This document shows positions 9,257 through 47,140 of a DNA stretch of 64,000 bases, piece by piece. Location: positions 33,987 to 97,986 of the forward strand of contig JAQCEO010000002.1 of NCBI GenBank assembly GCA_027729805.1, given 5' to 3'. The notes under the pieces are model-generated. The model saw only the letters and a list, made by a program, of their open reading frames with translations. It was not told where the DNA came from and searched no databases. Within the stretch, counting starts at the first letter, position 1, and the number at the start of each line of letters is the position of its first letter. The translations under genes were made by a program, and so were the position numbers. The DNA comes from Actinomycetota bacterium (GTDB lineage Bacteria > Actinomycetota > Actinomycetes > S36-B12).

Positions 9257-9558
9257 TGACCGCAATTACCCGTGACGAAGTCGCGCACTTAGCCAAATTG
9301 GCTCGCCTTGACCTCAGCGGCACCGAACTGGATCATTACGCGGAGCAATTGGATGTGATTTTGCAGTCGGTGGCCCGAATTTCTGAGGTGGCTGCCGATG
9401 AGATTCCACCGACCTCACACCCGGTGCCTGTTGAGAATGTATTCCGCGCGGACATCGCCTTACCCGGGCTGGATCGGGCGGAGGTTTTCGCTGCCGCACC
9501 GGCTACCGAAGATGATCGCTTTCGGGTGCCGAGGATCCTTGACGAGGAGGAGGCATGA
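9256..9558 (+). CDS. gatC: Asp/Glu-tRNA amidotransferase subunit C
   Basis: 100 aa; [18 protein letters not shown] pattern; first gene of a gatCAB operon with overlapping stops and starts. Confidence 0.9.
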
Positions 9559-11060
9559 CTAGTGCGGCCGCGGACCTCATTCGCCAATCCGCAAGTGTGC
9601 TGGCCGCCGCCATTAGCGAAGGCGAGGTGTCGTCAGTCGAAGTAACCAAGGCGCATCTGGCACGAATCGCTGCAGTCGATGAGCGAGTGCACGCATTTTT
9701 ACAGGTCACCTCGAAGGCGGCACTTGAAAGTGCGCAGGCAATAGATGAAAAACGTAAATCCGGTGCCACTCTTGGAGTACTAGCGGGAGTGCCGATCGCG
9801 GTGAAAGATGTGCTGACGATGCGTGGGGTGCCGACTACCTGCGGGTCCAAAATCCTTGAAGGCTGGCGACCACCCTATGACGCTACCGTCGTCTCCCGGC
9901 TGCGAGCGGCGGACTTGGTTATCCTGGGCAAGACCAATATGGACGAATTCGCCATGGGTTCGTCAACGGAGCACTCAGCATATGGTCCGACTCACAATCC
10001 ATGGGATCTAGAACGTATTCCTGGTGGCTCCGGTGGTGGGTCGGCGGCCGCGTTGGCAGCTTTTGAAACTCCGCTGTCGATCGGTACTGACACCGGCGGA
10101 TCCATCCGTCAACCGGCGGCCGTAACCGGAACCGTTGGGGTCAAGCCAACCTATGGTGGGGTCTCGCGCTACGGGCTGGTGGCACTCGCCTCATCACTTG
10201 ATCAGGCCGGTCCGTGCGCCCGCTCGGTAATGGACGCGGCATTGCTGCACTCGGTGATAGCCGGACACGATCCCCGCGACTCAACTTCAATTAATGCACC
10301 GGTACCTGATGTGGTGGCTGCGGCGAACCGGGGGGATATTCGTGGGTTGCGCATTGGGCTGGTCAAGGAGTTGAGTGGTGAGGGCTATCAGGCGGGAGTG
10401 TTGCAGCGGTTCAACGAGTCCGTTGAGTTGCTGCAAGGGTTGGGAGCTGAGGTAGTTGAAGTTTCGTGCCCACATTTTGACTACGCACTGGGTGCCTACT
10501 ACCTGATTCTTCCCTCTGAAGCATCGAGTAACCTCGCGCGCTTTGACGGTATGCGCTACGGGCTTCGAGTTGGTGATAATGGGTCAAATTCGGTCGAGCA
10601 AGTTATGTCGCTTAGTCGCGAAGCCGGCTTTGGCGCTGAAGTTAAACGCCGAATAATGTTGGGCACTTATGCGCTTTCCAGTGGCTATTACGACGCTTAC
10701 TATGGCCAAGCCCAAAAAGTTAGGACGCTCATTACCCGCGACTTCAATGCTGCCTTCGAAAAAGCCGACGTACTAATTTCCCCGACGGCACCTACTACGG
10801 CCTTCAAAATCGGCGAGAAGGTCGATGACCCATTGGCGATGTACCTGAACGACATCGCCACCATCCCGGTTAATCTGGCCGGCAACTGTGCGATGTCATT
10901 ACCGGTCGGGCTTTCGCCGGCCGATGGCCTGCCGGTGGGTTTGCAAATAATGGCACCGCCAATGGCCGATGACCGGCTTTATCTGGTGGGCTCGGCGCTG
11001 GAGTCCGCGCTCACCGACCGCTGGGGTCACCTGCTGATCCAGGAGGTCCCGAACCTGTGA
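9555..11060 (+). CDS. gatA: Asp/Glu-tRNA amidotransferase subunit A
   Basis: Amidase signature [10 protein letters not shown]...[12 protein letters not shown]; 501 aa. Confidence 0.95.
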
Positions 11061-12574
11061 GCAACACCCAACTAACAGTGCCATTTGCTGAGGCCATGAC
11101 CCGGTATGAACCCATCATCGGCCTTGAAGTCCATGTTGAGCTCGGCACTAATTCGAAGATGTTCTGCTCCTGTGCCACGACTTTTGGCGCTTCGCCGAAT
11201 ACCCAAGTGTGCCCGGTGTGCCTTGGGCTACCGGGTTCGATGCCGGTGTTGAACAAGGTGGCGGTGGAGTCAACCATTCGCATCGGCTTAGCCCTGAATT
11301 GTGAGATCGCCACTTGGTGCCGTTTTGCTAGAAAGAACTATTTCTACCCGGATATGCCAAAGGACTATCAAGTCAGTCAGTACGACGAGCCCCTTTGCAC
11401 CAATGGCTGGCTTGACGTGACTGTTGCAACCGATGACGGTCCGCAGGTGGTGCGAGTCGAAATTGAGCGGGTGCACATGGAGGAGGACACCGGCAAACTC
11501 ACGCACGCCGGTGGCGCAACAGGTCGCATTCACGGAGCTGACTACTCATTGGTTGACTACAACCGGGCGGGTATCCCGTTGATTGAGATAGTAACCAAGA
11601 CCGTGATCGGCACCGGGCCGTTGGCGCCCGCTGTTGCACGTGCCTATGTCACCGAGTTACGCGATGTCATGCGCGCCCTCGGAGTTTCGGATGTGCGCAT
11701 GGAGGAGGGATCATTACGCTGCGATGTGAACCTGTCGCTAAATAGACCAGGGGCGGGTTGGGGTACCCGCAGCGAGACGAAGAACGTGAACTCACTGCGC
11801 TCGGTCGAACGCGCGGTGCATTCCGAAATCGAAAGACAGGCCGCAGTTTTGGACGGCGGCGGGCGAGTGATTCAGGAGACGCGGCACTTTCACGAGGACA
11901 CCGGCCGATCCACTTCGGGCCGGTCAAAGGAGCAGGCCGAGGACTACCGCTATTTCCCCGAGCCGGATTTGGTGCCGATCGCGCCAACGCGCACCTGGGT
12001 TGAGGAGTTGCGGGCAACGCTGCCTGAAGTTCCCTCCGTTAAGCGGGCCCGGCTGCAGAGTACCTGGGGGATCAACGAGTTTGAGTTGGCAACTTTGGTA
12101 AATGCCGGGGCGGTTGAACTAGTTGAGTCCAGCATCGCCGCCGGTGTTGACGCGGCAGCGGCCCGCAAGTGGTGGACCGGTGAGTTATTGCGCGTGGCCA
12201 ATGAGCGAGGTGTCGAGTTGGCGGATTTACCGGTGACTGTTAGCCAGATTGCCCGAGTGGAGTCCTTGATAGCCGATGGCAGGCTTAACGACCAACTTGC
12301 CCGTCAAGTTTTCGAGGGAGTATTGGCCGGGGAAGGCGATGTCGATGTGGTGATCGCGCAACGTGGTCTTGCGGTGGTTAGTGATGATGGCGCCCTACTT
12401 TCAGCAATTGATGAGGCCCTCGCCGCGCAGCCAGATGTAGCGGAGAAGATTAAGAGCGGCAAGATTCAAGCAGCCGGGGCGATTGTCGGCGCGGTTATGA
12501 AAACGACAAAGGGGCAGGCCGATGCGGCGAAAGTGCGCGCCTTACTGCTCGACCGCCTCGGGGTAAGCGAGTAA
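11057..12574 (+). CDS. gatB: Asp/Glu-tRNA amidotransferase subunit B
   Basis: [13 protein letters not shown]...KMFCSC N-terminus; 505 aa; operon context. Confidence 0.95.
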
Positions 12575-12580
12575 TCCCCG

Positions 12581-13477
12581 TTGGCTGGTATCGCACTGCT
12601 CCCGGCTTTCCTGCAAGGGGTCAAGTACCCCGATGAACTTGTTTACTATCACGATGCACCCGCGCCAGCAGACTTATTGCGAGCTGGGTTCTTCGTCCCC
12701 GAATACATGGGTTCGGTTTCGACGGTAGAAGTCCTAGCCGAAATGCCGGCACTTGAGGTAGTTCAACTTCTAACCGCCGGATTCGAATATGTGCTGCCGT
12801 ACCTACCGGTGGGTACGCAACTTTGTAATGCGGCTGGTGTGCATGATGCCAGCACTGCCGAACTTGCCGTCGGCCTGATCTTGGCCTCCCTTCGCGGCTT
12901 GGATGTTGCTGCGCGCAATATGGAGTCCGGTAATTGGCAGCATGACACCCGTCCGAGTCTGGCTGATCGACAGGTGGTAGTTCTCGGCGCGGGGGGAGTA
13001 GGGCAGGCGATTAGGCGGCGCCTTGAACCATTTGAGGTCACCGTAACCATGATTGGGCGCACCGCGCGCCCCGGCGTTACGGCGGTAACTGATCTTGAGT
13101 TGATCCTGCCAACAGCCGATGTGGTGGTACTAGCGGTGCCCCTTGATACCACCACCCGCGGACTAGTTGATGCGAAATTCCTCAAACTGATGAAAACTGA
13201 TGCGTTATTGGTGAATGTTTCACGCGGCCCGGTTGTTGAAACCGAGGCACTTATCGGGGCATTGCAATCTGGACGCGTCAGTGCGGCGTTAGATGTGACC
13301 GACCCGGAGCCGCTTCCGCCAGAGCACCGCCTCTGGGCCTGCCCCAATTTATTGATCTCGGCCCATGTCGGTGGTGATACCTCAGCATTTGTCCCTAGGG
13401 CCAGGGCCTTGGTTTCCGATCAGTTGACGAGCTGGTCCACCGGCCGGCAACTGCGAAATATCATCCCCACGACGTAA
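12581..13477 (+). CDS. D-isomer-specific 2-hydroxyacid dehydrogenase family protein (core-genome copy)
   Basis: NAD-binding VLGAGGVGQAIRRRL; RG..V and H.GG catalytic regions (VNVSRGPVV, SAHVGG); TTG start. Confidence 0.8.
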   Translation: MAGIALLPAFLQGVKYPDELVYYHDAPAPADLLRAGFFVPEYMGSVSTVEVLAEMPALEVVQLLTAGFEYVLPYLPVGTQLCNAAGVHDASTAELAVGLILASLRGLDVAARNMESGNWQHDTRPSLADRQVVVLGAGGVGQAIRRRLEPFEVTVTMIGRTARPGVTAVTDLELILPTADVVVLAVPLDTTTRGLVDAKFLKLMKTDALLVNVSRGPVVETEALIGALQSGRVSAALDVTDPEPLPPEHRLWACPNLLISAHVGGDTSAFVPRARALVSDQLTSWSTGRQLRNIIPTT

Positions 13478-13519
13478 TCCCGCGAACTCCCCGATTCCGG
13501 GCAACATTAAGGTGTCGCT

Positions 13520-15208
13520 ATGACAAATATGAAGCCACGTAGCTCCGAGGTCACTGATGGTCTAGAGCGCGCGGCCGCCCGCGGAATGCTCCGAGCAGTT
13601 GGGATGTCTGATGAGGATTTCTCAAAGCCCCAGATCGGGGTGGCCTCGTCTTGGAATGAGATCACGCCTTGCAATCTTTCCCTTGAACGCCTGGCGCGCT
13701 CGGCGAAGGAGGGGGTGCACCAAGCCGGTGGCTTCCCAATGCAATTTGGCACCATCTCGGTCTCGGATGGGATCTCGATGGGCCACGAGGGGATGCACTT
13801 TTCCCTTGTCTCGCGGGAGATCATCGCCGACTCGGTCGAGGCAGTGATGCAGGCGGAGCGCCTTGACGGCATGGTTACCTTTGCGGGCTGCGATAAGTCA
13901 TTGCCGGGCATGTTGATGGCATCGGCGCGCATCGATGTCGCTGCAGTTTTCGTCTATGCCGGTTCCATTCTCCCCGGACACGTGAAATTATCCGATGGCA
14001 CCGAAAAAGATGTCACGATCATCGATGCCTTCGAGGCGGTGGGCGCTTGTGCCCGCGGCTTGATGTCACGCGAAGACGTTGACACCATCGAAAGGGCAAT
14101 TTGCCCGGGTGAAGGTGCCTGTGGTGGCATGTATACCGCGAACACGATGGCAAGTGCGGCTGAAGCCATGGGGATGTCATTGCCGGGTTCGACAGCGCCG
14201 CCGGCAGTCGATCGCCGTCGCGATGGTTTTGCCCGTCGTTCCGGTGAAGCCGTGGTCGAACTCATCCGTCAAGGCATCACCACCCGCGACATCATCACCA
14301 GGCAATCACTTGAGAATGCAATTGCCGTGGTAATGGCATTTGGCGGCTCCACGAATGCGGTTCTGCATCTGCTCGCTATCGCCCATGAGGCAAATGTTGA
14401 ACTCGATATGGAGGATTTCCACCGCATCGGCTCCAAGGTGCCACTGTTGGCCGACGTGAAGCCGTTTGGCCGATTCGTCATGAGTGATGTTGATCGGGTC
14501 GGCGGGGTGCCAGTCATAATGCGGGCCTTGCTCGATGCTGGGCTAATGCACGGTGATTGCCTGACGGTAACGGGTAAGACCATGGCCGAAAACCTCGCGA
14601 ACATCAATCCACCGGATCCGGACGGTGATATTTTGTACGCGTCGAAGAATGCAATTGCCACTACCGGCGGCATCACGATTTTGTCCGGCTCGATGGCCCC
14701 AGAAGGTGCGGTCGTGAAGAACGCCGGGGTGCCGGTTGAGGTATTTGAGGGTGCGGCGCGGGTATTCGAACGGGAGCAGTCGGCGATGGCGGCCCTCGAA
14801 GACGGCACCATTCAAAAGGGCGATGTCATCATCATTCGCTACGAGGGCCCAAAGGGTGGCCCGGGTATGCGCGAAATGTTGATGATCACCGGGGCGATCA
14901 AGGGTGCTGGGCTGGGCAAGGAGGTCATGCTCATCACCGATGGCCGGTTCTCCGGTGGTACGACCGGATTATGTGTTGGTCACGTGGCCCCCGAGGCGGT
15001 CGATGGCGGGCCGATTGGGTTAGTGGCCCAGGGGGATCGGGTGCGGATCGATATCGGTGCCCGGACTTTGGATCTATTGGTTGATGAGGCCGAACTTGCC
15101 AGGCGGCGGGCGGCATTTGTGCCCCTGCCGCCCCGCTACACCCGGGGCGTGCTGGCCAAGTACACCAAGTTGGTGGGCTCGGCATCTAAGGGTGCGGTCT
15201 GCGACTAA
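13520..15208 (+). CDS. ilvD: Dihydroxy-acid dehydratase
   Basis: Fe-S ligand region [11 protein letters not shown] and overall IlvD/Edd pattern; 562 aa. Confidence 0.95.
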
Positions 15209-16187
15209 TCGAGGCTGCTGCCCGAAGGTCGACGGTGCTCAAGGCGCCCGTAACTAGGGTCACCGCGGTAACCGCCCATGCGAATATGAGAACCTCGACC
15301 GCGATTAGCGCGGCCAACCCCTCAACCTTTGGATGTGACACCGAAAGCACCAAGGTGACGGTCGCTAAGGCAGCGATAAGGGCCCCCGCACAAGGGAGAG
15401 CGCGCACGGACACCGGCCCGGTAACGGGCACGCCGCGGCGACGTAATACCCAGGCCGCCGCAAGACTTTGACAGGTGAGGGCGAGAGCGATGCCGCCTAC
15501 GGCGTCGCTCGGTCGGTGCCACCCCGCCAGGACGACGCTGCCGGTAACAAGGATCACCATGGTCAGGCCGCCGATCGCCACGCCGACGCGGGCCCGCACG
15601 GGAACGAGGAAAATCAGTCCGAGTACGAGTGCGGTGATAAAGGTAGCGTGCCCGCTGGGGAATGTATTTAACCCATCTTTACTGCCCATCAGGTTTTCGT
15701 AGTCGGCGGCGAGAATTGGTCGAGGCAGGATGAACTTCAGCGCCTCCGCGGTCAAGATGCTCGCCGCGTACGCGATTGCGATCGCGACTGCCGCGAGCCA
15801 CTGACGTCGAAATGCCGCCACGATGACGAGGATCAAGGCCGCACACAGGAAGACCTTTAGGTCAATAGCCGAAAGGAATCCCTTGTCGAAGACGAGAAGC
15901 GCCTTGCTCTCGGCAAGGCGTCCTAGGTAGGCGGCGTCGCCGATGGCTTGGCCGACCGCGGTCAGTACAAAGACTAGGTAGGTGGTGACAAGCACACCGG
16001 TACCGACGAGGGCCAAAATGCGCAGCCGTCGCACGCTGGTACCCACGACAAGATCTGGCATCCGTCCTCCTGCGTCAGGCCAAAAGAGGTCGTCTCCTCC
16101 AACACCCAACCATAGGGTCACCGAGGCCGAGCGATCGCGACGAAACCCACCTTTGCGCCGGTGATAACTCTGCCACTTTCTTGACAC
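15186..16187 (-). CDS. PAP2-family (type 2 phosphatidic acid phosphatase-like) integral membrane protein
   Basis: PAP2 motifs [25 protein letters not shown]; multiple TM helices. The true start may be ATG 16061 (MPDLVVG...). Its 3' end overlaps the ilvD 3' end by 23 nt. Confidence 0.7.
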
Positions 16188-16269
16188 TGCACACCGTAAA
16201 GGACATGTCGAAGTTAGTGCTGAGGCACTAGTCCGGACGCAGATGAAAATACGAGAAAAGACCCGTAAA

Positions 16270-17703
16270 TCAGTTGGGCATCCTTATTGTCGGTGTCAGC
16301 GGTGCGATTCTCCGCGCGCGAAGGCAGGCGATCAGCACGCCGGTGCCGTACGCGGCGTCGTCGACGAGGCGCAGCGCGAGGTATCGGGCTGGGTCGAGCG
16401 GGGGCCGATGCGTGGCGTACGCCCAGGCGATCGGCGCGAGCATGCATGCGGTGGCTGTCCTCGCGATACGCGAGCGTGGGGACATAGCGAATGCTGCCGC
16501 ACCGATTGGCCACCACTCCCGACGCAGCAGGTGGCCGATTCCGGCGGCATCCGCGACGAGGTTTTGGCCGACGATGCGCGCCGCGAGGAGTTCGGGATTG
16601 TCAAGCACTCGCAACTGACGCGACAGCGCGCCTGCAGCGCTCGCCGTAGCCAGTCCGCCAAGGAGCGGACGTCCAACGGCAAGTAAGCCAAGTGCCGCGA
16701 CATTCCAAAATGACAGCCGCGCCGGTGTCAACTTGTCAGGATGACGACGTGACAGTGCAGCCGCCGACGTTCCATACTCGAAGCGACGGGTCAACCATGC
16801 GCGTGGTCGAGCACGCGTCGAATGGGTGACGATCACCGATGGGTCATAGAGCACATGCCAACCCGCGTCGGTCAGCCGCCAGATCAGGTCGACGTCTTCG
16901 CCCAGCCGCAGGTTCTCATCGAACCCCGCACCGAGCGCGCTGCGTCGCAAGATCAACGCCGCGGTCGGCAGGAATCCGAGCCGCGAGCCAGGTCGCACTA
17001 GCTCGGGGAATACGCCCATATCGAGTGAGGATCGGGTCGTCTCGTAGCGGTCGATGACGCTGTGGCCCGCAGGATTGGCTCGCACTCGGGGTGCAACTGC
17101 CGCGACCGAGGGATCGACGAAGTGGTGCAGCATCGAGTCTGGCCAGCCCGGCGGCGCAATACAATCTGAGTCTAGGAACGCGATAAATTCGCCCTGGGAG
17201 GCGGCAATACCCGTGTTGCGAGCCGCTGCCGGACCACGGTTCACCGCGTGCACGACCAAGGTCGCGCCATGGCGCGCAGCTGCAGCGACCACAGAAGCCG
17301 GATCGAGGGACCCGTCATCAACCACGGTCACGGATCCCGCCCCAAAAACAGAGGTAAGAGTGCGGTCCAGACTGTCGGCTCGGTCCATCGCCGGTATGAC
17401 AACGCTCGCGGCTCCCAAGGACTCTTCTGGGGTCCTGGCCACGATCGCGAGCCCTCGATCCACGAGTATCCGGAAGATCGCAAGCGTCTGCCGGTCCGAA
17501 GCCTCCACTCCGGTGCGGCCATTGGCCAGCAGGTTCACGACCACCGTGCGCGCCCGCCCCGATACCCGGCTGACCCGCCAGGGCGAGCCACCAATCAGCG
17601 CCGACGCATTCGCCCACCCGCGTACCCCAGGCGCGAGCCGCACTACGGTGCCGCGCGGCAGCGAACGATCAAGGAGCAAAGATGCCACCGCAGGTGCAGC
17701 CAC
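16270..17703 (-). CDS. mftF: Mycofactocin glycosyltransferase (family-2 GT with C-terminal membrane domain)
   Basis: GT2 core VVIPAMDRADSLDRTL...VTVVDDGS...FLDSDC; 477 aa, as expected for MftF; adjacent to mftR and mftABCDE. Confidence 0.8.
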   Translation of the reverse strand: MAAPAVASLLLDRSLPRGTVVRLAPGVRGWANASALIGGSPWRVSRVSGRARTVVVNLLANGRTGVEASDRQTLAIFRILVDRGLAIVARTPEESLGAASVVIPAMDRADSLDRTLTSVFGAGSVTVVDDGSLDPASVVAAAARHGATLVVHAVNRGPAAARNTGIAASQGEFIAFLDSDCIAPPGWPDSMLHHFVDPSVAAVAPRVRANPAGHSVIDRYETTRSSLDMGVFPELVRPGSRLGFLPTAALILRRSALGAGFDENLRLGEDVDLIWRLTDAGWHVLYDPSVIVTHSTRARPRAWLTRRFEYGTSAAALSRRHPDKLTPARLSFWNVAALGLLAVGRPLLGGLATASAAGALSRQLRVLDNPELLAARIVGQNLVADAAGIGHLLRREWWPIGAAAFAMSPRSRIARTATACMLAPIAWAYATHRPPLDPARYLALRLVDDAAYGTGVLIACLRARRIAPLTPTIRMPN

Positions 17704-17704
17704 C

Positions 17705-18298
17705 TCAGTTGTCCAGGATCGAGTGCAGCGCCGACCCGGTGCCTAGCAGCAACTCCTCGAGGGTGTGCGCGTCGCTCTCAAGCCACTGCTCGTATGCCGA
17801 TAATGCCAGCGCCAAGGCCACGTGCCCCGCTAGCCGCGGCACCAGGCTATCCACCGGAGTGGCAAGCCGCGTAGCGACGTAGTTGGCGATCACCGCGCGC
17901 CACTGCTCGTACCGCAGGGCCGAGTGGGCCTGCAGCGCCGGCGTGCGCAAGATGAGGGTCATCCGCTGCCGGTGCTGGGGGAGGGCGAGCGGATCGAAGT
18001 GGTTGAAGTCAACGACCGCGCGGTTGATGGCTTCGAAAAGCGGCACATCAGCATGTGTTGACTCAAGGTTCACCCGCAGGACTTCGAGGCTAGCGTCGAA
18101 CCGCCCCCACGGAATGTCGTTCTTCGATGGGAAGTAGCGGAACAGTGTCCGTCGCCCAACCCCCAGTGCCGTCGCGATGTCGTCGAGGGTCGTATTGTCG
18201 AACCCTTGGGTCGCGAACAACTCGAACGAGACGGCTTCGATTTCGGCGTGGCTCGTCACGGGTGGACGTCCGGCTACTAGCCGCTGTGCGGTGCTCAT
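17705..18298 (-). CDS. mftR: TetR-family regulator of the mycofactocin system
   Basis: TetR HTH TTLDDIATALGVGRRTLFRYFPSKNDI; divergent from mftA; stop lies 1 nt before the mftF start. Confidence 0.8.
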   Translation of the reverse strand: MSTAQRLVAGRPPVTSHAEIEAVSFELFATQGFDNTTLDDIATALGVGRRTLFRYFPSKNDIPWGRFDASLEVLRVNLESTHADVPLFEAINRAVVDFNHFDPLALPQHRQRMTLILRTPALQAHSALRYEQWRAVIANYVATRLATPVDSLVPRLAGHVALALALSAYEQWLESDAHTLEELLLGTGSALHSILDN

Positions 18299-18424
18299 AA
18301 CGGCATGAACCTAGCAGGGATTTGCAGAGTTTTAGCCCGAAATACTTGCTTTTTGGCGCTCAGTGCCATTACTGTCCGGAGGGGGCCATTCGGCACCCCG
18401 GATACCTCAACGAAGGGAGCCACC

Positions 18425-18538
18425 ATGTTCCTCGGTTCACCACAGGAAGACGCAGCCCTGCAGTCCCCACCAGCAGACAGCCAAGTTGAGACATTAATTG
18501 AGGATATCTCGATCGATGGCATGTGCGGCGTCTACTAG
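18425..18538 (+). CDS. mftA: Mycofactocin precursor peptide
   Basis: C-terminus ...VETLIEDISIDGMCGVY* carries the canonical IDGMCGVY. ATG 18425 is preceded by GAAGGGAG. The 77-aa ORF-track call (18305) is an over-extension. Confidence 0.9.
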   Translation: MFLGSPQEDAALQSPPADSQVETLIEDISIDGMCGVY

Positions 18539-18557
18539 ATAGGAAGCCAGAAACCTC

Positions 18558-18857
18558 ATGGTGATGCTGGATGAGCCGTGGCAGTTGTCTCCAGACGTTG
18601 CGCTTCGCACTGAGCCCTTCGGTGCCCTCGCCTACAACTTCCGGACTAGGCGGCTTACCTTTCTCAAGCGACCTGAACTCGTCGCGGTGATCGCGGGCCT
18701 GAGCGCCGGCGCCGATGTGCGCGAGGCGCTGCAGGCAGCGAGTGTTCCTCCCGTCCAATGGTGCGCTTACCTAAAGGCCCTGGAGTCACTGGCGGCGGCG
18801 GGCACGATCCAACCGCGAGGCTGTATACAACCACAACAACAGGAGGCTGCATCGTGA
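18558..18857 (+). CDS. mftB: Mycofactocin precursor-binding chaperone (RRE protein)
   Basis: PWQLSPDVALRTEPFGALAYNFRTRRLTFLK pattern; 99 aa; its stop overlaps the mftC GTG. Confidence 0.85.
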   Translation: MVMLDEPWQLSPDVALRTEPFGALAYNFRTRRLTFLKRPELVAVIAGLSAGADVREALQAASVPPVQWCAYLKALESLAAAGTIQPRGCIQPQQQEAAS

Positions 18858-20104
18858 CGATTCTTGATGAGCGAATCAGCACCGCTCCGGCAGTCCGTCC
18901 TACCGGAGGATCGCTGCTCGACCAGTTCGAGTTGGGCCTCAACGCGCCGATCTGCCTGACCTGGGAACTGACCTACGCGTGCAACCTCGCTTGCGTCCAC
19001 TGCCTGTCATCATCGGGAAAGCGCGACCCCCGCGAGCTCAGCACCGAACAGTGCGAGGCGGTGATTGACGAATTGCAGCGCATGCAGGTTTTCTACGTGA
19101 ACATCGGCGGGGGCGAGCCCACGATCCGACCGGACTTTTGGCACCTGATCCAGTACGCCGTTTCGCATCAGGTCGGCGTGAAGTTCTCAACCAACGGTGT
19201 GCGCGTCACACCTGAGCGGGCGGCCTTCCTTGCCTCGACCGACTACGTAGACGTGCAGATCTCACTCGACGGCGCCACCGCCGAGGTTAATGACCGCGTG
19301 CGCGGTACCGGCTCTTATGACATGGCGATCCGCGCGCTGGATAACCTGTCCGTGTCCGGTTTCAAGGACGCGAAGATCTCGGTCGTAGTTACCCGCGAGA
19401 ACGTTAGCCAACTCGACGAGTTCAAGGCGCTGGCCGACCGCCACGGTGCCACGCTGCGACTAACCCGGCTGCGTCCCTCGGGCCGCGGCGCGGACGTGTG
19501 GGATGACCTGCATCCGACGGCCGCGCAGCAGCGTGATCTCTACAACTGGCTGATACAGGCTGGCCCGAACGTCCTCACTGGCGACTCGTTCTTCCACCTC
19601 GCCGGATTCGGCGAACCGCTGCCCGGCCTCAACCTCTGCGGCGCCGGCCGCGTGGTGTGCCTCATCGATCCCATCGGCGATGTGTACGCGTGCCCCTTCG
19701 CCATCCACGACAACTTCCTCGCCGGCAACATCACCGCGCTCGGCGGCTTCCAGAACGTCTGGCAGAACTCCGAGTTGTTCGCCGACCTGCGCTCCCCGCA
19801 AACTTCCGGCGCATGCACCAAGTGCCAGCATTTCGATTCGTGCCGTGGTGGTTGCATGGCCGCGAAGTTTTTCACCGGCCTGCCGCTCGACGGCCCGGAC
19901 CCCGAATGCGTCCAAGGATTCAGCGAGGACGCCCTACTGCAGGTTGGCCGCACGATCCCCGCCGCGAGCCAGGACCACTCGAAGCCCAGCAAGCGGGGGC
20001 AGGAGCCGGTGTTTCTGCAATTGGGAATGCTCAGTCCAGCGACACCCCCGGTGCACGGGTGCGCCCAGAGTCCTATCGCTGGCCGCGACCCAGGCGCGAG
20101 CTAA
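18854..20104 (+). CDS. mftC: Mycofactocin radical SAM/SPASM maturase
   Basis: Radical SAM CNLACVHC; C-terminal SPASM cysteines CTKCQHFDSCRGGC. GTG 18854 overlaps the mftB stop as GTGA. The ORF-track start at 18758 overlaps mftB. Confidence 0.9.
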   Translation: MTILDERISTAPAVRPTGGSLLDQFELGLNAPICLTWELTYACNLACVHCLSSSGKRDPRELSTEQCEAVIDELQRMQVFYVNIGGGEPTIRPDFWHLIQYAVSHQVGVKFSTNGVRVTPERAAFLASTDYVDVQISLDGATAEVNDRVRGTGSYDMAIRALDNLSVSGFKDAKISVVVTRENVSQLDEFKALADRHGATLRLTRLRPSGRGADVWDDLHPTAAQQRDLYNWLIQAGPNVLTGDSFFHLAGFGEPLPGLNLCGAGRVVCLIDPIGDVYACPFAIHDNFLAGNITALGGFQNVWQNSELFADLRSPQTSGACTKCQHFDSCRGGCMAAKFFTGLPLDGPDPECVQGFSEDALLQVGRTIPAASQDHSKPSKRGQEPVFLQLGMLSPATPPVHGCAQSPIAGRDPGAS

Positions 20105-20124
20105 CTCAGTGCGAAAGGTTTACC

Positions 20125-21312
20125 GTGGCAAATCCGTGGTTTGAGTCCGTCGCCGAGGCGCAGCGCCGCGCCAAGAAGCGGCTGCCCTCCTCGGTCTATA
20201 GCGCGCTGCTCGCTGGCAATGAGAAGGGCACCTCCTACGACGACAACATCACCGCATTCTCCAAGATCGAACTGGCTCCCCACGTCGCCGGCCTACACTC
20301 CGAGCGCGAGTTGTCCACGACTTTCATGGGCCATGCCATCTCGTTCCCCGTCGTCACCTCGCCGACGGGAGTCCAGTGCGTCCACCCCGACGGCGAGATC
20401 GCGATCGCCCGCGCAACCGCCGCCCGTGGCACGGCAATGGTGCTTGGCTCATTCGGCAGCAAGCCCCTCGCTGACGTCATCGCCGCGAACCCGCTCACCT
20501 TCTTCCAGATTTATTGGATGGGGACCCGCGATCAGATGCTCGAGCGCCTCGCCTATGCCAGGGATCTCGGAGCCAAGGGCATTATGTTGACCCTCGACTG
20601 GTCCTTCGCTACTGGACGCGACTGGGGCAGCCCCGTTATCCCCGAGCGGATCGGCTTCAAGACCATGGTGCAGTTCGCCCCGCAGGTCATCGTCAAGCCC
20701 AAGTGGCTCGTGTCATTCGCTCGGGGTGGGGGCATTCCAGACCTCCGCACCCCGAACCTGAAGAATGAGGCGGGGGCGACCCCCACCTTCTTCGGTGCCT
20801 ACTACGAGTGGATGCAGACACCACCGTGCACGTGGGAGGACCTCGCGTGGCTGCGCTCGCAGTGGGAAGGTCCGTTCATGCTTAAGGGCATTTGCCGCGT
20901 CGACGACGCGAAGCGGACGGTAGACGCGGGCTTCTCGAGCCTGTCGGTCTCTAACCACGGCGGCAACAACATCGACTCCACGCCCGCACCCATTCGCGTC
21001 CTCCCGTCGATCGTCCGGGCCGTAGGCGACCAAGTCGAGATCGTCATGGATGGCGGGATTCGCAGAGGAAGCGACGTCGTCAAGGCAGTCGCGCTCGGCG
21101 CCAAGGCCGTCATGATCGGACGCCCGTACCTCTGGGCACTAGCAGCGAACGGGCAGGCCGGAGTCGAGAACGTCCTAGACATCCTCCGCAGCGGCATCGA
21201 CTCCACCGTCTACGCGCTCGGGCACAAATCGATCCGCGACCTGAGCCCCGCGGACGTCTTCGTCCCTGCGGGATTCACGCGAACGCTCGGTGCCGACGGG
21301 AGCAAACAATGA
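20125..21312 (+). CDS. mftD: FMN-dependent alpha-hydroxyacid-oxidase-like pre-mycofactocin synthase
   Basis: LldD-type motifs (VSNHGGNNID, DGGIRRGSDV). In-frame GTG 20125 follows GAAAGG. The 468-nt 5' extension in the ORF track overlaps mftC. Confidence 0.9.
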   Translation: MANPWFESVAEAQRRAKKRLPSSVYSALLAGNEKGTSYDDNITAFSKIELAPHVAGLHSERELSTTFMGHAISFPVVTSPTGVQCVHPDGEIAIARATAARGTAMVLGSFGSKPLADVIAANPLTFFQIYWMGTRDQMLERLAYARDLGAKGIMLTLDWSFATGRDWGSPVIPERIGFKTMVQFAPQVIVKPKWLVSFARGGGIPDLRTPNLKNEAGATPTFFGAYYEWMQTPPCTWEDLAWLRSQWEGPFMLKGICRVDDAKRTVDAGFSSLSVSNHGGNNIDSTPAPIRVLPSIVRAVGDQVEIVMDGGIRRGSDVVKAVALGAKAVMIGRPYLWALAANGQAGVENVLDILRSGIDSTVYALGHKSIRDLSPADVFVPAGFTRTLGADGSKQ

Positions 21313-22043
21313 CCAAGGTGCATCGGCTGGCCACCATGACGTGGGACGATGTCCCACCGAAGTCACTCGTACTCGTTCCCATGGGCTCGACCGAGCAGCA
21401 CGGCCCGCACTTGCCGTTCGAGACAGACACGCTCATTGCCACCGCAGTCGCGGAGAGCATAGCTAAGGCCATGAACGGTGAAGGAGTGGATGTCATCCTC
21501 GCGCCCGCCATCGCTTACGGCGCGAGTGGCGAGCACCAAGAGTTTCCCGGCACCATCTCCATCGGCCATGACGCACTGCGGATGCAGATCGTCGAGCTCG
21601 TGCGCTCGCTCTCCACCTGGGCGGGGCGCATCGTGTTCGTCAACGGCCACGGTGGCAACGTCAAGTCTCTCGCCTCGGCGATCGAGGAGATGCGCCAAGA
21701 GCAGCATGACGTTGCGTGGCTGGCATGCATCTTGGAGTCGGCCGGCGATGCCCACGCCGGATCGATCGAAACCTCAGTCATGCTCCACCTCGCACCGGAG
21801 CGGGTCCGCATGGACAAGGCTGAGCCCGGGCAACTCGCCTCTCTCAAGGAGATTCTCCCGTTGCTGATGTCGTCTGGAGTCAAAGCGGCATCGCCGTCCG
21901 GAGTATTGGGAGACCCCACCACCGCGGCCGCTGACATTGGCCAACAGCTGGTGGACCAACTCGTCGCCAGCGGCGCAGCACTCATCACCTACGCAGCCGT
22001 CGACGACCAAGGACGACTCGTCTCAAGCGAACTTGCCTCGTGA
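21309..22043 (+). CDS. mftE: Creatininase-family mycofactocin peptidase
   Basis: GSTEQHGPHLP metal-binding motif; 244 aa; ATGA overlap with mftD. Confidence 0.85.
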   Translation: MTKVHRLATMTWDDVPPKSLVLVPMGSTEQHGPHLPFETDTLIATAVAESIAKAMNGEGVDVILAPAIAYGASGEHQEFPGTISIGHDALRMQIVELVRSLSTWAGRIVFVNGHGGNVKSLASAIEEMRQEQHDVAWLACILESAGDAHAGSIETSVMLHLAPERVRMDKAEPGQLASLKEILPLLMSSGVKAASPSGVLGDPTTAAADIGQQLVDQLVASGAALITYAAVDDQGRLVSSELAS

Positions 22044-22858
22044 TGACAACCGAAACCGATCCTCCACGAGTCGCCCTAGTTACCGGCGCAGCCAACGGCA
22101 TCGGTCGCGCCACCGTCGACATCCTCGTTCAGCAGGGGTTCCGTGTCGTGGCCGTGGACTCCTGCGCCGGGTCGGGAACCGAACGTGGCGAGGGGGTCGA
22201 CTACGCTCTCGCCACGCCGGATCAACTGCTCAGCCTTGAGTCCGAGTACCCCGGCCTCGTACATGCGCGGATTGTCGATGTCCGTGATGCCAGAGCACTT
22301 GCCGCCGCAGGTAAATTCGCCGTCGACGAGTTCGGCAGGCTCGACGCCGCGGTCGCCGCCGCCGCAGTCATCGTTGGTGGTTATCCGGTCTGGGAGACAC
22401 CCGAGTCGCACTTGCGCACGCTACTTGACGTCGACGTCGTCGGAGTCTGGAACACCGCATCAGCGGCAGTACCGCTTATGCTCACCGGCCCGGACCCACA
22501 GGGCTGCCGTTTCGTCGCCGTGGCATCTGCCGCCGGAACTCGCGGCCTCTTCCATCTAGCCGGATATACCGTTGCCAAGCACGCTGTGGTCGGCCTAGTG
22601 CGGGGCCTTGCCGCCGACCTCATCGGCACCGGTGTCACTGCGGTCGCGGTCTCTCCCGGCTCAACCGACACCGACATGTTGCGAGCCACAGCAGGCCTAT
22701 ACGGCCTCGACCAAATTAACGAGTTCAGCTCCTCGCAACTGTTACGACGTCTCCTGCGGCCCGAGGAAATCGCTGCGACGATCGCCTTTTGCTGTTCAAA
22801 GGAAGGAGCTGTACTGAACGGATCGATAGTAGACGCCTCCGGTGGTTTCACAGCGTGA
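22040..22858 (+). CDS. Mycofactocin-coupled short-chain dehydrogenase/reductase (subfamily with a long insert after the Rossmann motif)
   Basis: ALVTGAANGIGRAT, catalytic YTVAKHA; ATGA-coupled to mftE. Confidence 0.8.
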   Translation: MMTTETDPPRVALVTGAANGIGRATVDILVQQGFRVVAVDSCAGSGTERGEGVDYALATPDQLLSLESEYPGLVHARIVDVRDARALAAAGKFAVDEFGRLDAAVAAAAVIVGGYPVWETPESHLRTLLDVDVVGVWNTASAAVPLMLTGPDPQGCRFVAVASAAGTRGLFHLAGYTVAKHAVVGLVRGLAADLIGTGVTAVAVSPGSTDTDMLRATAGLYGLDQINEFSSSQLLRRLLRPEEIAATIAFCCSKEGAVLNGSIVDASGGFTA

Positions 22859-23267
22859 AAAGAGGAGGTGCGTCCTTTGGTGATGCAGCCCTCCGCCCCG
22901 AGCATTGCCGGGGCTGACCGGACGGCTTAGCGGCCGAATCCCGACTCGAGCGCAAGTGTGAGATGAAGGGGAAGGAGTACTCCAGTTGCGAGTTCTCCGC
23001 TTTGGATTTGGGCCCGCAGGAAGGGGTCAGGTCCTAGCTGTCTCTTCGCCAGGTGATTGACAATTGGTGCATTGGATGGCACATTGTCCCACGGCTCAGC
23101 TCGGGGGAATGACTCTCCCTGATCGCCGTCCAGCAGATCGAAACGGAGGCTCGCGTGAGCGCACCAGCCAACGCTGCATACACCGAGCGGCTGGCCTATG
23201 CACCCAAAGACCCACTCGTCCTGTTCGCGTGTACCAGAGGGCAGGGTCTAGAAGCGGTGCTGTACCC

Positions 23268-24095
23268 GTGAGCCTCGAAGGCAAGGTGGCCGTCGTCACC
23301 GGGGCCGCTCGCGGGCAGGGTCGCAGCCACGCGGTGCGTCTGGCCGAGGAGGGCGCGGATGTCATCGCGATCGACATCTGCCGGCCCATATCCACCGTCC
23401 CCTATCCACTGGCTACGGCGGGCGACCTGCAGGAAACAGCGGAGCGGGTGCGCGCTTTGGGTCGCCGAATTCTTGCCGTGGAGGTAGATGTTCGCGACTC
23501 CCTAGCGCTAAACGCGGCGATTGCTGAGGGGCTTGCATTGCTCGGCCGCATTGACATCGTTGTGGCGAACGCTGGCATCATCAGTTTTGCTCCGGTGGAG
23601 GACATCACGGGGGAGATGTGGGACGAGGTCATCGACGTCAATCTCAAGGGTGTTTGGCATACCTGTAAGGCAGCAATTCCGGCGATGAAGGCGGGCGGGG
23701 AGGGTGGTTCTATAGTCATCATCTCCTCGGTCGCCGGAGTGAAAGCCTGGGAGAATCAGGCCCACTATGTGGCGAGCAAGCACGGCGTCATCGGGCTCAT
23801 GCGCACGATGGCACGTGAACTTGCCCCCCACCGCATTCGTGTCAACACCGTGCATCCCACCAGTGTGCTGACCGACATGATCGACAATGACGGCCTGTAT
23901 CGCCTCTTTCGTCCCGACCACCCAAATCCCACAATGGCAGATGTCGAGCCGCTGTTTTGGCAGCAGAACAGCCTGCCGCTGCCTTGGGTGGAGCCGGTTG
24001 ACATTAGCAATGCAGTTGTCTTCTTGGCATCTGATCAGGCAAGGTATATAACGGGCATTATGTTGCCGGTGGATGCCGGTACCTTGCTTAAGTAG
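23268..24095 (+). CDS. Mycofactocin-coupled SDR, carveol-dehydrogenase-like subfamily
   Basis: AVVTGAARGQGRSHAVRLAEEGADVIAIDIC...YPLAT..DL matches the SDR subfamily reported to co-occur with mft loci; YVASKHG. In-frame GTG 23268 is preferred over the ORF start at 23064. Confidence 0.85.
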   Translation: MSLEGKVAVVTGAARGQGRSHAVRLAEEGADVIAIDICRPISTVPYPLATAGDLQETAERVRALGRRILAVEVDVRDSLALNAAIAEGLALLGRIDIVVANAGIISFAPVEDITGEMWDEVIDVNLKGVWHTCKAAIPAMKAGGEGGSIVIISSVAGVKAWENQAHYVASKHGVIGLMRTMARELAPHRIRVNTVHPTSVLTDMIDNDGLYRLFRPDHPNPTMADVEPLFWQQNSLPLPWVEPVDISNAVVFLASDQARYITGIMLPVDAGTLLK

Positions 24096-25204: not shown

Positions 25205-25233
25205 TTGACAAATGCCAGAAGGGCGCCTAAATT
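25205..25233 (+). promoter_or_regulatory. Sigma-70-like promoter TTGACA-17 nt-TAAATT upstream of the first transketolase operon
   Basis: TTGACA at 25205-25210, 17-nt spacer, TAAATT at 25228-25233. It is followed by TTGTCAACAA (25249-25258), a copy of the recurring island motif. Confidence 0.4.
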
Positions 25234-25294
25234 CCAGATGACCGTATTTTGTCAACAATATAGAGAATGTCGGGAATTGGGCGGTGTTGACTTT

Positions 25295-26122
25295 GTGAGT
25301 TTTTCTGAGTTTGAGGCCGTGAGTCGAAGGGTCCGGCGACTTGTCGTGGATACTGTGTATGGCGCTGGTGCTGGGCATATTGGGGGCCCACTATCGGCCG
25401 TCGACATCCTCACCGTGCTCTATCACCACGAAATGCGAATCTCGGTGAGCGATCCCGAGTGGCCAGATCGCGATCGCTTCATCTTGTCCAAGGGGCACTC
25501 CAGCCCTGCCCTCTACTCGGTTCTTGCCTCGTGCGGGTTCATCCCGGAGGAGGAGTTGTGGACTTTCGACGAGGTCGGTAGCCGACTCCAGGCGCATCCG
25601 GACATGCACAAGACGCCAGGTGTGGATATGTCCACGGGCTCGCTGGGTCAAGGCTTATCGGCGGGCGCGGGAATGGCGCTAGCCGCCAAGTTGGCGTCCC
25701 AGCCCTTTCGCGTGTACGTCCTGCTTGGTGACGGTGAGTGCCAGGAGGGTCAGGTGTGGGAAGCCGCGATGTTCGCCCAGCGGTTCGCACTCGACAACCT
25801 GGTTGCCGTCGTGGACTGGAACGGTCTCCAGCAGGTCGGGTGGGATCTCAGCGATCAGCCTTCCCGGGAGGACACACTCCCCACGGCGGTTGAGAAGTGG
25901 CGTGCCTTCGGATGGCATACCGCCGTCGTTGATGGTCACGACATCGGGGCGCTAGTCAATGCCTTCGACGCTGCGCGGAAGGTCACGGGTCAGCCGTGTG
26001 TGATTCTGGCCACGACGACGAAGGGAAAGGGAATCTCATTCATGGAGAACGACAACGCCTGGCATTCCCGGATCATCACCGAAGATGACTATGCGGCGAT
26101 CTGCGCGGAGCTGGCGCCGTGA
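25295..26122 (+). CDS. Split transketolase, N-terminal (TPP/PP-domain) subunit, copy 1
   Basis: GAGHIGGPLS and GDGECQEGQVWEA TPP-binding motifs. In-frame GTG 25295 gives ~275 aa; the ORF-track start at 25205 coincides with the promoter-like hexamer. Confidence 0.85.
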   Translation: MSFSEFEAVSRRVRRLVVDTVYGAGAGHIGGPLSAVDILTVLYHHEMRISVSDPEWPDRDRFILSKGHSSPALYSVLASCGFIPEEELWTFDEVGSRLQAHPDMHKTPGVDMSTGSLGQGLSAGAGMALAAKLASQPFRVYVLLGDGECQEGQVWEAAMFAQRFALDNLVAVVDWNGLQQVGWDLSDQPSREDTLPTAVEKWRAFGWHTAVVDGHDIGALVNAFDAARKVTGQPCVILATTTKGKGISFMENDNAWHSRIITEDDYAAICAELAP

Positions 26123-27066
26123 ACGGCACCGTGCAGGCTGAAGCAACACGTGATGCCTTCGGGGCGGAATTGCTTGACTGCGCGAAGGCCGACCCTTCGA
26201 TCGTCGTGGTCGACGCTGACCTCGGCAATGCAATCGGCCTGGTCCAGTTCCGGTCGACATTTCCGGCTCGGTACATTCAAGTCGGTATCGCCGAGCAGAA
26301 CGCCGTAGGTGTTGCAGCTGGGCTGGCCGCCTGCGGCTTCCGCCCTGTGCTGACCTCCTTCGCTGCCTTCGTGGCATGCCGCTGCCTGGACCAGATCAGG
26401 GTTTCCGTCGCCCAAACTGGTCTGCCGGTTGTGCTGCTCGGCGGCCACTCGGGCCTCCTGGCGGGGCGACTCGGCAAGACCCACGTGACCATGGAGGATC
26501 TATCGATCCTGCGCTCCCTCCCTGGCCTCGCCTGTGTCGCACCAGCGGATGGCGTCGAGATGCGCAAGGCGTTGCGAGCCTGCCTCGCCTACCCCGGTCC
26601 TACCTACCTCCGGGCTACCCGGGATGCGACTCCAACCATTTTCACGTCTGACCACGAGTTCGCGATCGGCAGGGCGTACATGCTCCGGGAAGGGGCCGAC
26701 ATCTGCTTGCTGTCGAGCGGGACGATGACACCGCGAGCTGCGCAGGTCGCTACCCTCCTGTCTGATCTCGGGTATTCAACAGCCTTGGTACATGTGCCCA
26801 CCCTGAAGCCGCTGGATATCCAGACGGTTGCCACTGCCACTCGTGGCAAGCGGCTCGTAGTCACGTACGAGGACCATTCGATTCTGGGTGGCCTCGGGTC
26901 CGCAGTCGCTGAAGTCCTCTTCGAGGGGGATCGACCCCCTCTCCTTCGGATCGGTACGGAGGACACCTACATCGACTCGGGGAAGAATGATGACCTCTTG
27001 GAGTTCTATAGGTTGGAACCAGAAGTTGTGACCGGCAGGATAGTGAACGCACTGGAGACGCAATGA
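26119..27066 (+). CDS. Split transketolase, C-terminal (Pyr + C-domain) subunit, copy 1
   Basis: ATRDAFGAELL...VVVDADLGN...IQVGIAEQNAVGVAAGLA; GTGA overlap with the N subunit. Confidence 0.85.
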   Translation: MNGTVQAEATRDAFGAELLDCAKADPSIVVVDADLGNAIGLVQFRSTFPARYIQVGIAEQNAVGVAAGLAACGFRPVLTSFAAFVACRCLDQIRVSVAQTGLPVVLLGGHSGLLAGRLGKTHVTMEDLSILRSLPGLACVAPADGVEMRKALRACLAYPGPTYLRATRDATPTIFTSDHEFAIGRAYMLREGADICLLSSGTMTPRAAQVATLLSDLGYSTALVHVPTLKPLDIQTVATATRGKRLVVTYEDHSILGGLGSAVAEVLFEGDRPPLLRIGTEDTYIDSGKNDDLLEFYRLEPEVVTGRIVNALETQ

Positions 27067-42022: not shown

Positions 42023-42997
42023 ATGCTGATGAGTAAAATGGACATCGTGACCACCGGCAAAGAGGCGAGGGTTGTCACCATGCCATTCGCTGATGCGCTC
42101 GTCTCTTTGGGTCAATCGCGATCAGACGTTGTAGTGCTGAGCGCCGACCTGAGCAACTACACCGACCTAATTCCGTTCCGCGACGCCTTCCCAGATCGAT
42201 TCTTCCAGGTGGGCATGGCGGAACAGAATATGATGGGGATCGCAGGTGGCCTCGCCCGCTCGGGCCTCTTGCCGATCGCTGTCACTTACGGGGTGTTCGC
42301 CACCCGACGAGCCTACGATCAGGTAGCCATGGCTTTGGGCACTGGCACGGTCAAGGCCATCATCGTCGCCTTTCTACCAGGCATCACCACGCCGTTTCGC
42401 GCCACGCACCAAGCAACTGACGATCTTGCGCTGATGCGGGCAATCCCTGGCATGACGGTTATCGACCCAGCCGACTCGACGGAGCTGCGAGCAGCCCTTC
42501 ATGCCGCAGCGGCGAATCCAGGAACGGTCTACCTGCGGGGACTAAGGGGTCTGGTCGAGGAGCGTTTTGATCCCGAGGGCTTCATCTTCGCAATCGGCGC
42601 TGCGCGTCTGGTACGCGACGGACCTGACGCCGCGATCGTAGGGACGGGTCTTGGCACGGCTTGGGCCCTAGATGCCAGTGAAATTCTTGCCGCCCGCGGC
42701 ATCTCGGCGAGCCTGCTGCACGTGCCAACCCTGAAGCCCCTTGATCGCGAAGCCATCGCGGCGCTGGCGGCGCGATTCGCGGTCGTTCATGTTGTCGAAA
42801 ACCACTCGGTGGTAGGCGGCCTAGCTAGTGCTGTTGCCGAGGTGATAGCGGGAATCGGCGCACCAACTCGCGTGAACCCGATAGGTGTGCCAGACCAGTG
42901 GGCGCCGGCCGGTTCACTTGACTACATCAGATCTGAGATCAATTTGTCAGCGGTTGGGATCGCGGACCGCGTGTTGGCGACTTGGACTGGTCCGTGA
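42023..42997 (+). CDS. Split transketolase, C-terminal (Pyr + C-domain) subunit, copy 2
   Basis: FADALVSLG...VVLSADLSN...FQVGMAEQNMMGIAGGLA; the start could also be 42029 or 42038. Confidence 0.85.
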   Translation: MLMSKMDIVTTGKEARVVTMPFADALVSLGQSRSDVVVLSADLSNYTDLIPFRDAFPDRFFQVGMAEQNMMGIAGGLARSGLLPIAVTYGVFATRRAYDQVAMALGTGTVKAIIVAFLPGITTPFRATHQATDDLALMRAIPGMTVIDPADSTELRAALHAAAANPGTVYLRGLRGLVEERFDPEGFIFAIGAARLVRDGPDAAIVGTGLGTAWALDASEILAARGISASLLHVPTLKPLDREAIAALAARFAVVHVVENHSVVGGLASAVAEVIAGIGAPTRVNPIGVPDQWAPAGSLDYIRSEINLSAVGIADRVLATWTGP

Positions 42998-45792: not shown

Positions 45793-45849
45793 CGTGCCGG
45801 GTCCGTCGGCCCTGCGGGCCTCCTCCCGATCCGCGCGGCCCGCTCTTCG

Positions 45850-45920
45850 AGCGGGTGACCGGGATCGAACCGGCATGGCCAGCTTGGAAGGCTGGGGCTC
45901 TACCATTGAGCTACACCCGC
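45850..45920 (-). tRNA. tRNA-Gly (anticodon UCC), 71 nt, no encoded CCA
   Basis: Reverse complement folds by hand: GCGGGTG-TA-GCTC-AATGGTA-GAGC-C-CCAGC-CTTCCAA-GCTGG-CCAT-GCCGG-TTCGATC-CCGGT-CACCCGC-T. Confidence 0.9.
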
Positions 45921-47032: not shown

Positions 47033-47105
47033 CGGGGCGTAGCGTAGTGGCTAGCGCGCCTGCTTTGGGAGCAGGAGACCGGGAGTTCGAATCTCCCCGC
47101 CCCGA
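47033..47105 (+). tRNA. tRNA-Pro (anticodon UGG), 73 nt, no encoded CCA
   Basis: Hand fold: CGGGGCG-TA-GCGT-AGTGGCTA-GCGC-G-CCTGC-TTTGGGA-GCAGG-AGACC-GGGAG-TTCGAAT-CTCCC-CGCCCCG-A. Confidence 0.9.
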
Positions 47106-47140
47106 CAACCCTTAGCCCAACCACGATGGAATGAGCAGCT

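Follow-up and report, generated by a model that had tools for sequence, protein, structure and literature searches.

The DNA considered here is a stretch of 64,000 nucleotides from contig JAQCEO010000002.1 of an actinobacterial assembly, referred to as the window, and it carries a mycofactocin (mft) locus at positions 16270-24095. Our best explanation, held with considerable confidence, is a canonical mycofactocin system arranged as two back-to-back units, mftABCDE plus a short-chain dehydrogenase/reductase (SDR) gene and mftR-mftF, with a split that has been inherited within one clade of the glycosyltransferase MftF and with the regulator MftR likely repressing the mftA promoter. The locus is an ordinary, complete mycofactocin cluster whose operon split is clade-specific, and automatic annotation in GenBank has already named it.

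Translations of the open reading frames (ORFs) in the window were compared with NCBIfam models, applying the curated cut-off of each. All nine locus proteins, MftR, MftA to MftF and two mycofactocin-coupled SDRs, score above these thresholds (Table 1). The ORF map and the sequence place their genes in two divergent sets, mftR and mftF on the minus strand, mftABCDE-SDR and then the second SDR gene on the plus strand. A first-pass annotation of this DNA had recognised MftR, MftA to MftF and a second, carveol-dehydrogenase-like SDR at the end of the locus, and the family-specific models bear it out gene by gene. It had also singled out the end of MftA and a cysteine motif in MftC, and both can be read in the translations. 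The C-terminus IDGMCGVY is the conserved ...IDGxCGVY motif of mycofactocin precursors, and CNLACVHC, a CxxxCxxC motif, is visible in MftC. The product of 16270-17703 is a genuine MftF, as had been proposed. It matches the MftF-specific model over nearly its whole length, the DxD-type and GEDVD motifs are invariant across an alignment of 24 MftF homologues, and those homologues that were named by their source are named MftF. The protein is identical to GenBank entry MDA3021205.1, which is annotated as 'mycofactocin biosynthesis glycosyltransferase MftF'.

Table 1. Coordinates of the mycofactocin locus genes and of other features in the window. Scores are in bits, against the curated cut-off of the model; aa, amino acids.
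Feature	Position	Strand	Evidence and remarks
mftF, GT2 mycofactocin glycosyltransferase, 477 aa, GTG start	16270-17703	-	TIGR03965, 393.8 vs 280; model 1-466/467
mftR, TetR-family mycofactocin regulator, 197 aa	17705-18298	-	TIGR03968, 258.1 vs 224.9
mftA, precursor peptide, 37 aa, MFLGSPQEDAALQSPPADSQVETLIEDISIDGMCGVY	18425-18538	+	TIGR03969, 44.9 vs 25; ends IDGMCGVY
mftB, peptide chaperone, 99 aa	18558-18857	+	TIGR03967, 96.3 vs 33
mftC, radical SAM/SPASM maturase, 416 aa, GTG start	18854-20104	+	TIGR03962, 647.6 vs 265
mftD, flavin mononucleotide (FMN)-dependent pre-mycofactocin synthase, 395 aa, GTG start	20125-21312	+	TIGR03966, 653.2 vs 470.85
mftE, peptidyl-dipeptidase (creatininase family), 244 aa	21309-22043	+	TIGR03964, 305.3 vs 172
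Mycofactocin-coupled SDR (subfamily 2/4), predicted last gene of the mftA operon	22040-22858	+	NF040491, 366.4 vs 265; TIGR04504, 366.3 vs 250
Second mycofactocin-coupled SDR (subfamily 1, carveol-dehydrogenase-like group), 275 aa	23268-24095	+	TIGR03971, 411.6 vs 300
Conserved promoter/operator block	18345-18377		-35-like TTGCTT 18346-18351; palindrome TGGCGCTCAGTGCCA 18354-18368, putative MftR operator; -10-like TACTGT 18370-18375
Second operator-like palindrome, TGGCACATTGTCCCA	23077-23091		1 mismatch to the mftA-proximal site; after TTGACA 23058-23063, within the 409 nt that precede the second SDR; speculative
Terminator-like hairpin and T-run directly 3' of the mftF stop	16250-16267	-	Possible end of the mftR-mftF transcript; consensus scan, regional site count not above shuffled expectation
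PAP2-family phosphatase gene	15186-16187	-	Between ilvD and mftF; opposite-strand overlap of about 20 nt with the ilvD 3' end
ORF after the second SDR, 191 aa	24581-25156	-	BPD_transp_2 ABC-permease profile, positions 121-267 of 269 only
tRNA-Gly(TCC)	45849-45920	-	Right edge of the 15.2-47 kb high-GC block, before tig-clpP1-clpP2-clpX
tRNA-Pro(TGG)	47033-47106	+	Right edge of the high-GC block, before tig-clpP1-clpP2-clpX

How unusual is this arrangement? The first-pass annotation had considered the architecture rearranged and notable, and had placed the SDR in the position of a displaced mftF; neither view survives comparison with other loci. Eighty species-representative loci with 10-kb flanks were fetched by way of an alignment of MftF homologues. 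Contigs that encode the nearest relatives of MftF, or the IlvD of the same strain, supplied six more, giving 86; the same-strain contig was located by its IlvD, since an exact search of the contig index with the window MftF gave no match. Gene order in each was established by tblastn with the window proteins and a search for the C-terminal MftA motif. The mycobacterial type, with mftE directly before mftF, is found in 19 of the 86 loci, and in 18 others a single gene separates the two. They are divergent in five, and 32 layouts are different again or incomplete. In the other 12 mftR directly precedes mftF, as it does in the window (L001, L082-L086, L002, L007, L011, L025, L035 and L037). Outside the mycobacteria mft gene order is highly variable, and the mycobacterial order is therefore no general reference.

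In a neighbour-joining tree of MftF, the window and the 12 loci with mftR directly before mftF make up one clade. L086, L001 and L082-L085 cluster with the window, and L002, L007, L011, L025, L035 and L037 join them deeper in the tree; MftF identity to the window ranges from approximately 40% to 100%. The full order SDR-E-D-C-B-A / R-F is seen in L001, L082, L083, L084/L085 and L086, with L001 and L082 sitting on contigs of about 3.5 Mb, and the layout recurs among the species representatives in L002, L007, L011, L025, L035 and L037. These observations point to a conserved, inherited layout of one MftF clade and not to a local rearrangement. Every one of the 12 loci comes from a metagenome-assembled genome (MAG) or metagenome contig, several with isolate or sample names that suggest lakes, and the layout occurs in none of the cultured genera sampled (Actinomadura, Actinocorallia, Streptomyces, Kitasatospora, Prauserella, Amycolatopsis, Arthrobacter, Microbacterium, Leucobacter and Citricoccus). 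Haft's founding analysis covers gene co-occurrence, not gene order (PMC3023750), and our literature searches found no published description of the layout and no published account of mycofactocin in Nanopelagicales or freshwater MAGs.

The SDR behind mftE is a common operon member, not a replacement of mftF. It cannot be said to stand in the place of mftF because the order mftE-SDR-mftF is itself among the commonest layouts. Where one gene separates mftE from mftF it belongs to the same SDR subfamily in about 16 loci, and an SDR orthologue follows mftE in all those mftR-mftF loci that hold mftE, L035 excepted.

Some taxonomic labels in the survey deserve comment. Locus L035 (CAZQRR010000002.1, 4396-9855) is binned as 'uncultured Rubrivirga sp.', a genus we take to lie outside Actinomycetota. 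It nevertheless displays the mftR-mftF layout and its MftF falls inside the clade beside L037, a case either of mis-binning or of transfer between phyla. In four MAG loci (L018, L027, L030 and L050) mftE and mftF are divergent, and L018 and L027 are labelled Mycolicibacterium or Mycobacterium. In the last three of the four, mftDCBA and mftR lie on the far side of mftF, a departure from the order usually shown for mycobacteria. This reflects either loose labelling or an order that is variable even close to Mycobacteriales.

The junction between mftR and mftF is as tight as had been described. The mftR stop TGA occupies 17705-17707 and, after 1 nt, mftF starts with GTG at 17703, giving TGA-G-GTG (17707-17701) on the strand divergent from mftABCDE-SDR. 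The form TGA-N-GTG recurs in L001, L083 and L084, and in L082 the junction is TGAGTG. A candidate mftF start overlaps mftR by 4 nt in L011, L025, L035 and L037, and in L007 a candidate start overlaps the mftR stop; at the L002 junction no candidate start could be placed. An MftR orthologue of 197 residues is encoded at the same position in L001 and L082-L086. Retention of a tight junction across these loci is strong comparative evidence for a co-transcribed, lineage-inherited mftR-mftF bicistron. Co-transcription of mftR and mftF is well supported by this conserved coupling, and the two genes are probably also translationally coupled.

The divergent units are separated by 126 nt (18299-18424). 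The palindrome in this gap, at a distance of 57 nt from the ATG of mftA and of 56 nt from that of mftR, fills the 18-nt spacer between the -35-like and -10-like hexamers of mftA; its 15-nt pattern has no second exact match anywhere in the 64 kb. With zero to two mismatches it is present in 10 of 11 intergenic regions from mftR-mftF loci, the exception being L011. In a 10-locus alignment of these regions the invariant columns are confined to window positions 18347-18376, within a block of the form CTTG(C/A)TT-TT-TGGCGC-N3-GTGCCA-T-TA(C/T)TGT. The M. smegmatis MftR operator, mapped by DNase I footprinting, is the palindrome T-N2-GGCA-N5-TGCC-N2-A, at which MftR represses mft and from which long-chain acyl-CoAs release it (PMC8728441). 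Compared with this, the window sequence T-TT-GGCG-CTCAG-TGCC-AT-T (18352-18370) has two differences: its left half-site carries G in place of A, and its last position is T where the M. smegmatis palindrome ends in A. The core GGCR-N5-YGCC occurs in 17 of 28 mftR/mftA intergenic regions across the sample. Position and conservation suggest that MftR most likely represses the mftA promoter by occupying the spacer palindrome.

On the other side of the gap a -10-like TANNNT (TAGGTT in the window) is conserved in near relatives 9 nt upstream of the mftR ATG and may serve as the -10 element of an mftR-mftF promoter with a short leader. Upstream of this TAGGTT it is about 40 nt to the operator. The second palindrome, ahead of the second SDR, may place that gene in the MftR regulon as well. 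Judged by how often such matches arise across 1.5 Mb of loci, a 409-nt gap would contain one by chance with a probability of approximately 0.01, and the site was not corroborated in other species. Terminator-like matches were at background level in the scan.

Gene boundaries inside the plus-strand set are mostly close. A sequence resembling a ribosome-binding site, GAAGGGAG, lies 5' of mftA. The GTG start of mftC overlaps the mftB stop by 4 nt, and the mftE ATG overlaps the mftD stop to the same extent. The mftD start was set from the sequence and from the gene call in a contig of the same strain, L086. The first SDR is translationally coupled to mftE. An ATGA-coupled SDR had been reported in the position after mftE; the gene is indeed directly behind mftE, but the overlap is not the classical ATGA. 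The junction reads GTGATGA, with the mftE stop at 22041-22043 and the SDR start either at GTG 22040 (4-nt overlap) or at ATG 22043 (1-nt overlap). The second SDR, 409 nt further on, would be separately transcribed; the sequence and the L086 gene call give its start as GTG 23268 and not the 23064 start of a longer ORF.

We note that the public gene call for L086 omits mftA. At L086 positions 9543-9770, which correspond to window 18295-18522, it has instead a 75-residue ORF on the opposite strand that runs across the intergenic region and the mftA coding sequence. This illustrates how a precursor gene is lost in automatic annotation.

The window contains no gene of the GMC family, to which MftG belongs, as the first-pass annotation had remarked. 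Every ORF of at least 430 codons belongs to another family, as do most of those with 200 codons or more. In five relatives no GMC gene was called within 10 kb of the locus. Approximately 25% of genomes that contain mftC have no mftG, and the MftG clade comprises Mycobacteriaceae, Nocardiaceae, Gordonia and Dietzia, essentially Mycobacteriales (PMC11778925); the lack of a linked mftG is for these reasons unsurprising.

The system would be expected to operate along familiar lines. From knowledge of the families, MftB and MftC would decarboxylate and cyclise the C-terminal Val-Tyr of MftA, MftE would release 3-amino-5-[(4-hydroxyphenyl)methyl]-4,4-dimethyl-2-pyrrolidinone (AHDP), MftD would oxidise AHDP to premycofactocin, and MftF would add a beta-1,4-glucan chain. 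This cofactor probably serves the two nicotinoprotein SDRs encoded alongside. MftR bound to the palindrome between the -35 and -10 elements would hold the mftA promoter repressed, with mftF produced alongside MftR itself from the shared transcript.

Several points weigh against this explanation. The 80-locus sample consists of those loci most similar to the query and is hence not unbiased, and the MftF tree is a neighbour-joining tree without bootstrap support. The core GGCR-N5-YGCC is not enriched window-wide (16 matches against 14.4 expected); because so short a core is at chance level, the operator call is drawn from position and conservation between species. A simple sigma-70 scan did not report the proposed mftA promoter, and the promoter hexamers were for that reason assigned by eye. 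For this organism, moreover, the entire case is made from sequence.

Could the gene behind mftR be a generic GT2 unrelated to mycofactocin, leaving the locus with no true mftF? Its non-canonical position is all that speaks for this and we regard it as very improbable. The equivalog model TIGR03965 is matched end to end above its cut-off, which effectively refutes the idea, the best other GT2 model reaches 100.5 bits, far under its own cut-off, homologues that carry a name from their source are MftF, and the gene is co-localised with mftA-E in 12 other loci. That the order might be an artefact of assembly or binning is scarcely credible, although the window does derive from a MAG. The same junctions recur in independent assemblies from other samples, including the same-strain contig and the two contigs of about 3.5 Mb, both named with a '_c' suffix that possibly denotes circularity, and on this recurrence an artefact is rejected. 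A subtler proposal, which goes back to the first-pass annotation and is compatible with our explanation as an added layer, is a regulatory split. Here mftR-mftF would be constitutive or weakly autoregulated and mftABCDE-SDR inducible, such that glycosyltransferase would be present before the aglycone and glycosylation decoupled from induction of the core pathway. The operator lies outside the likely core of the TAGGTT mftR promoter yet inside the spacer of the mftA promoter, and the coupling of mftR and mftF is kept down to about 40% MftF identity to the window, suggesting selection. However, a divergent promoter can still be shut down by a TetR dimer bound some 20 nt ahead of a -35 element, the promoters were assigned by eye, and mft gene order drifts widely with no known functional consequence; we think the split rather unlikely. 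Less likely still is its extension, that the bicistron would be a regulatory innovation in a deep clade of uncultured Actinomycetota, apparently mostly of lakes, in which a promoter lying clear of the operator would deliver repressor and glycosyltransferase at a constant ratio and the core pathway would stay inducible. If true, these organisms would handle or recycle mycofactocin unlike mycobacteria, for example by MftG-independent re-oxidation via the operon-embedded SDR.

The origin of the module is a separate matter. The first-pass annotation had placed the locus in a high-GC island possibly acquired horizontally, and part of this stands. Genes from PAP2 (15186) to approximately 47 kb have a GC fraction of 0.60-0.66, with 0.67-0.85 at third codon positions (GC3), and the mft module itself has 0.641 with GC3 up to 0.83. 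The flanking housekeeping genes (ligA, gatA, gatB and ilvD on the left; tig, clpP1/P2, clpX and valS on the right) have 0.56-0.60, and the orthologous modules of relatives 0.67-0.68. These values would suit acquisition of the module, or of the whole 15-47 kb block, from an actinobacterium of higher GC with amelioration now under way. One relative, its IlvD a member of the same 90%-identity cluster as that of the window, retains ligA-gatCAB-2-hydroxyacid dehydrogenase-ilvD and has different genes past ilvD, with no mft, which places the module in a flexible region and means that it may have been acquired. The nine-gene module is conserved while its flanks differ, with PAP2 and ilvD in the window, SnoaL and PrpD-like genes in L001/L082, GntR and acyl-CoA synthetase in L083 and genes for unknown proteins in L084. 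The two tRNA genes at the right edge of the block and the truncated permease after the second SDR fit the same picture. Against it, no integrase or transposase family is represented among the annotated genes of the window, direct repeats flanking the 15-47 kb block amount to short chance matches with nothing att-like, and no att-like repeat of tRNA-Gly or tRNA-Pro was found at the left edge; a recent mobile-island insertion is on these grounds rejected as unsupported. The GC offset, moreover, is just about five points, and the MftF tree puts the window inside the clade of its own layout. Because module orthologues in relatives share that layout, vertical inheritance with loss in other lineages is equally possible. 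Horizontal acquisition is plausible but, in our judgement, doubtful.

The surroundings contribute further observations. The window IlvD is identical to a GenBank MAG protein, MDA3021203.1, annotated as dihydroxy-acid dehydratase. Because its 90%-identity cluster includes freshwater-metagenome and 'Candidatus Nanopelagicales' entries, the host is probably an uncultured, freshwater actinobacterium. In relatives whose IlvD belongs to this cluster (L087-L090, ~10001-17771) the place of the mft module is taken, a few genes past ilvD, by a second ilvD paralogue adjoining an apionate-lactonase-like gene, a GFO oxidoreductase, a rhodanese and a PhdYeFM/PIN toxin-antitoxin pair. The PAP2 gene is present in the same-strain contig and absent from the mftF flank in L001 and L082-L084. 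On the other side of the locus, the permease fragment is called in L086 in a 175-residue version, and such a truncated remnant suggests a past rearrangement boundary. The high-GC block beyond contains two split transketolases, three GFO/IDH/MocA oxidoreductases, a P450, two GntR regulators, an SMP-30 lactonase, a DMFA2-like protein and an enolase-superfamily enzyme. The transketolase-like pairs are in N-then-C order at 25205-27066 and in C-then-N order at 42023-43794. The block looks like an accessory sugar or polyol catabolic island.

What is to be gained from such a locus? Taken alone it matters little, the system, its enzymes and its regulator being well characterised in mycobacteria. It does show that the order of genes in mycofactocin loci is not fixed outside Mycobacteriales, and that the mycobacterial layout is unfit for judging rearrangement. 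The clade-specific mftR-mftF split offers a synteny marker by which a group of uncultured actinobacteria can be recognised. Conservation of the site suggests that the MftR operator and its placement in the mftA promoter spacer extend far beyond mycobacteria, which would help to predict MftR regulons in MAGs. The mftR-mftF coupling and the promoter with an operator in its spacer are of minor interest for mycofactocin regulation and MAG annotation.

The reference layout in mycobacteria is mftR / mftABCDEF with mftG (PMC9679996), as in the M. smegmatis cluster MSMEG_1420-1428 and M. tuberculosis Rv0691c-Rv0697, where mftR is divergent from mftABCDEF and mftG follows. The window shares with it the seven protein families, the divergence of mftR from mftA, mycofactocin-coupled SDRs nearby and, at a site known here from its sequence, a palindromic operator of the type GGCR-N5-YGCC upstream of mftA. 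In contrast, mftF is not downstream of mftE but is the second gene of the mftR unit on the opposite strand, an SDR follows mftE in the mftA operon, no mftG lies within 64 kb, and the probable host is an uncultured, lake-type actinobacterium outside Mycobacteriales. Closer in one respect is the layout mftABCDE-SDR-mftF, found in Acidimicrobiia, Solirubrobacterales, Jiangellaceae, Kribbella, Jatrophihabitans and other MAGs and genomes (including L033, L034, L043, L045, L061, L067-L070, L072, L075 and L076). These loci have the same SDR subfamily directly after mftE, and mftR, where present, is divergent from mftA, but their mftF ends the biosynthetic operon after the SDR whereas in the window it lies behind mftR. 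A third layout, mftF-> <-mftR / mftABCDE-SDR, is represented by a Nanopelagicales MAG (L023) and by L003. There, as in the window, mftF adjoins mftR on the side far from mftA, and in L023 the SDR again follows mftE. Unlike the window, however, mftF and mftR are convergent in these two loci, a single transcript of both is not possible, and their MftF proteins fall outside the clade that carries the mftR-mftF bicistron.

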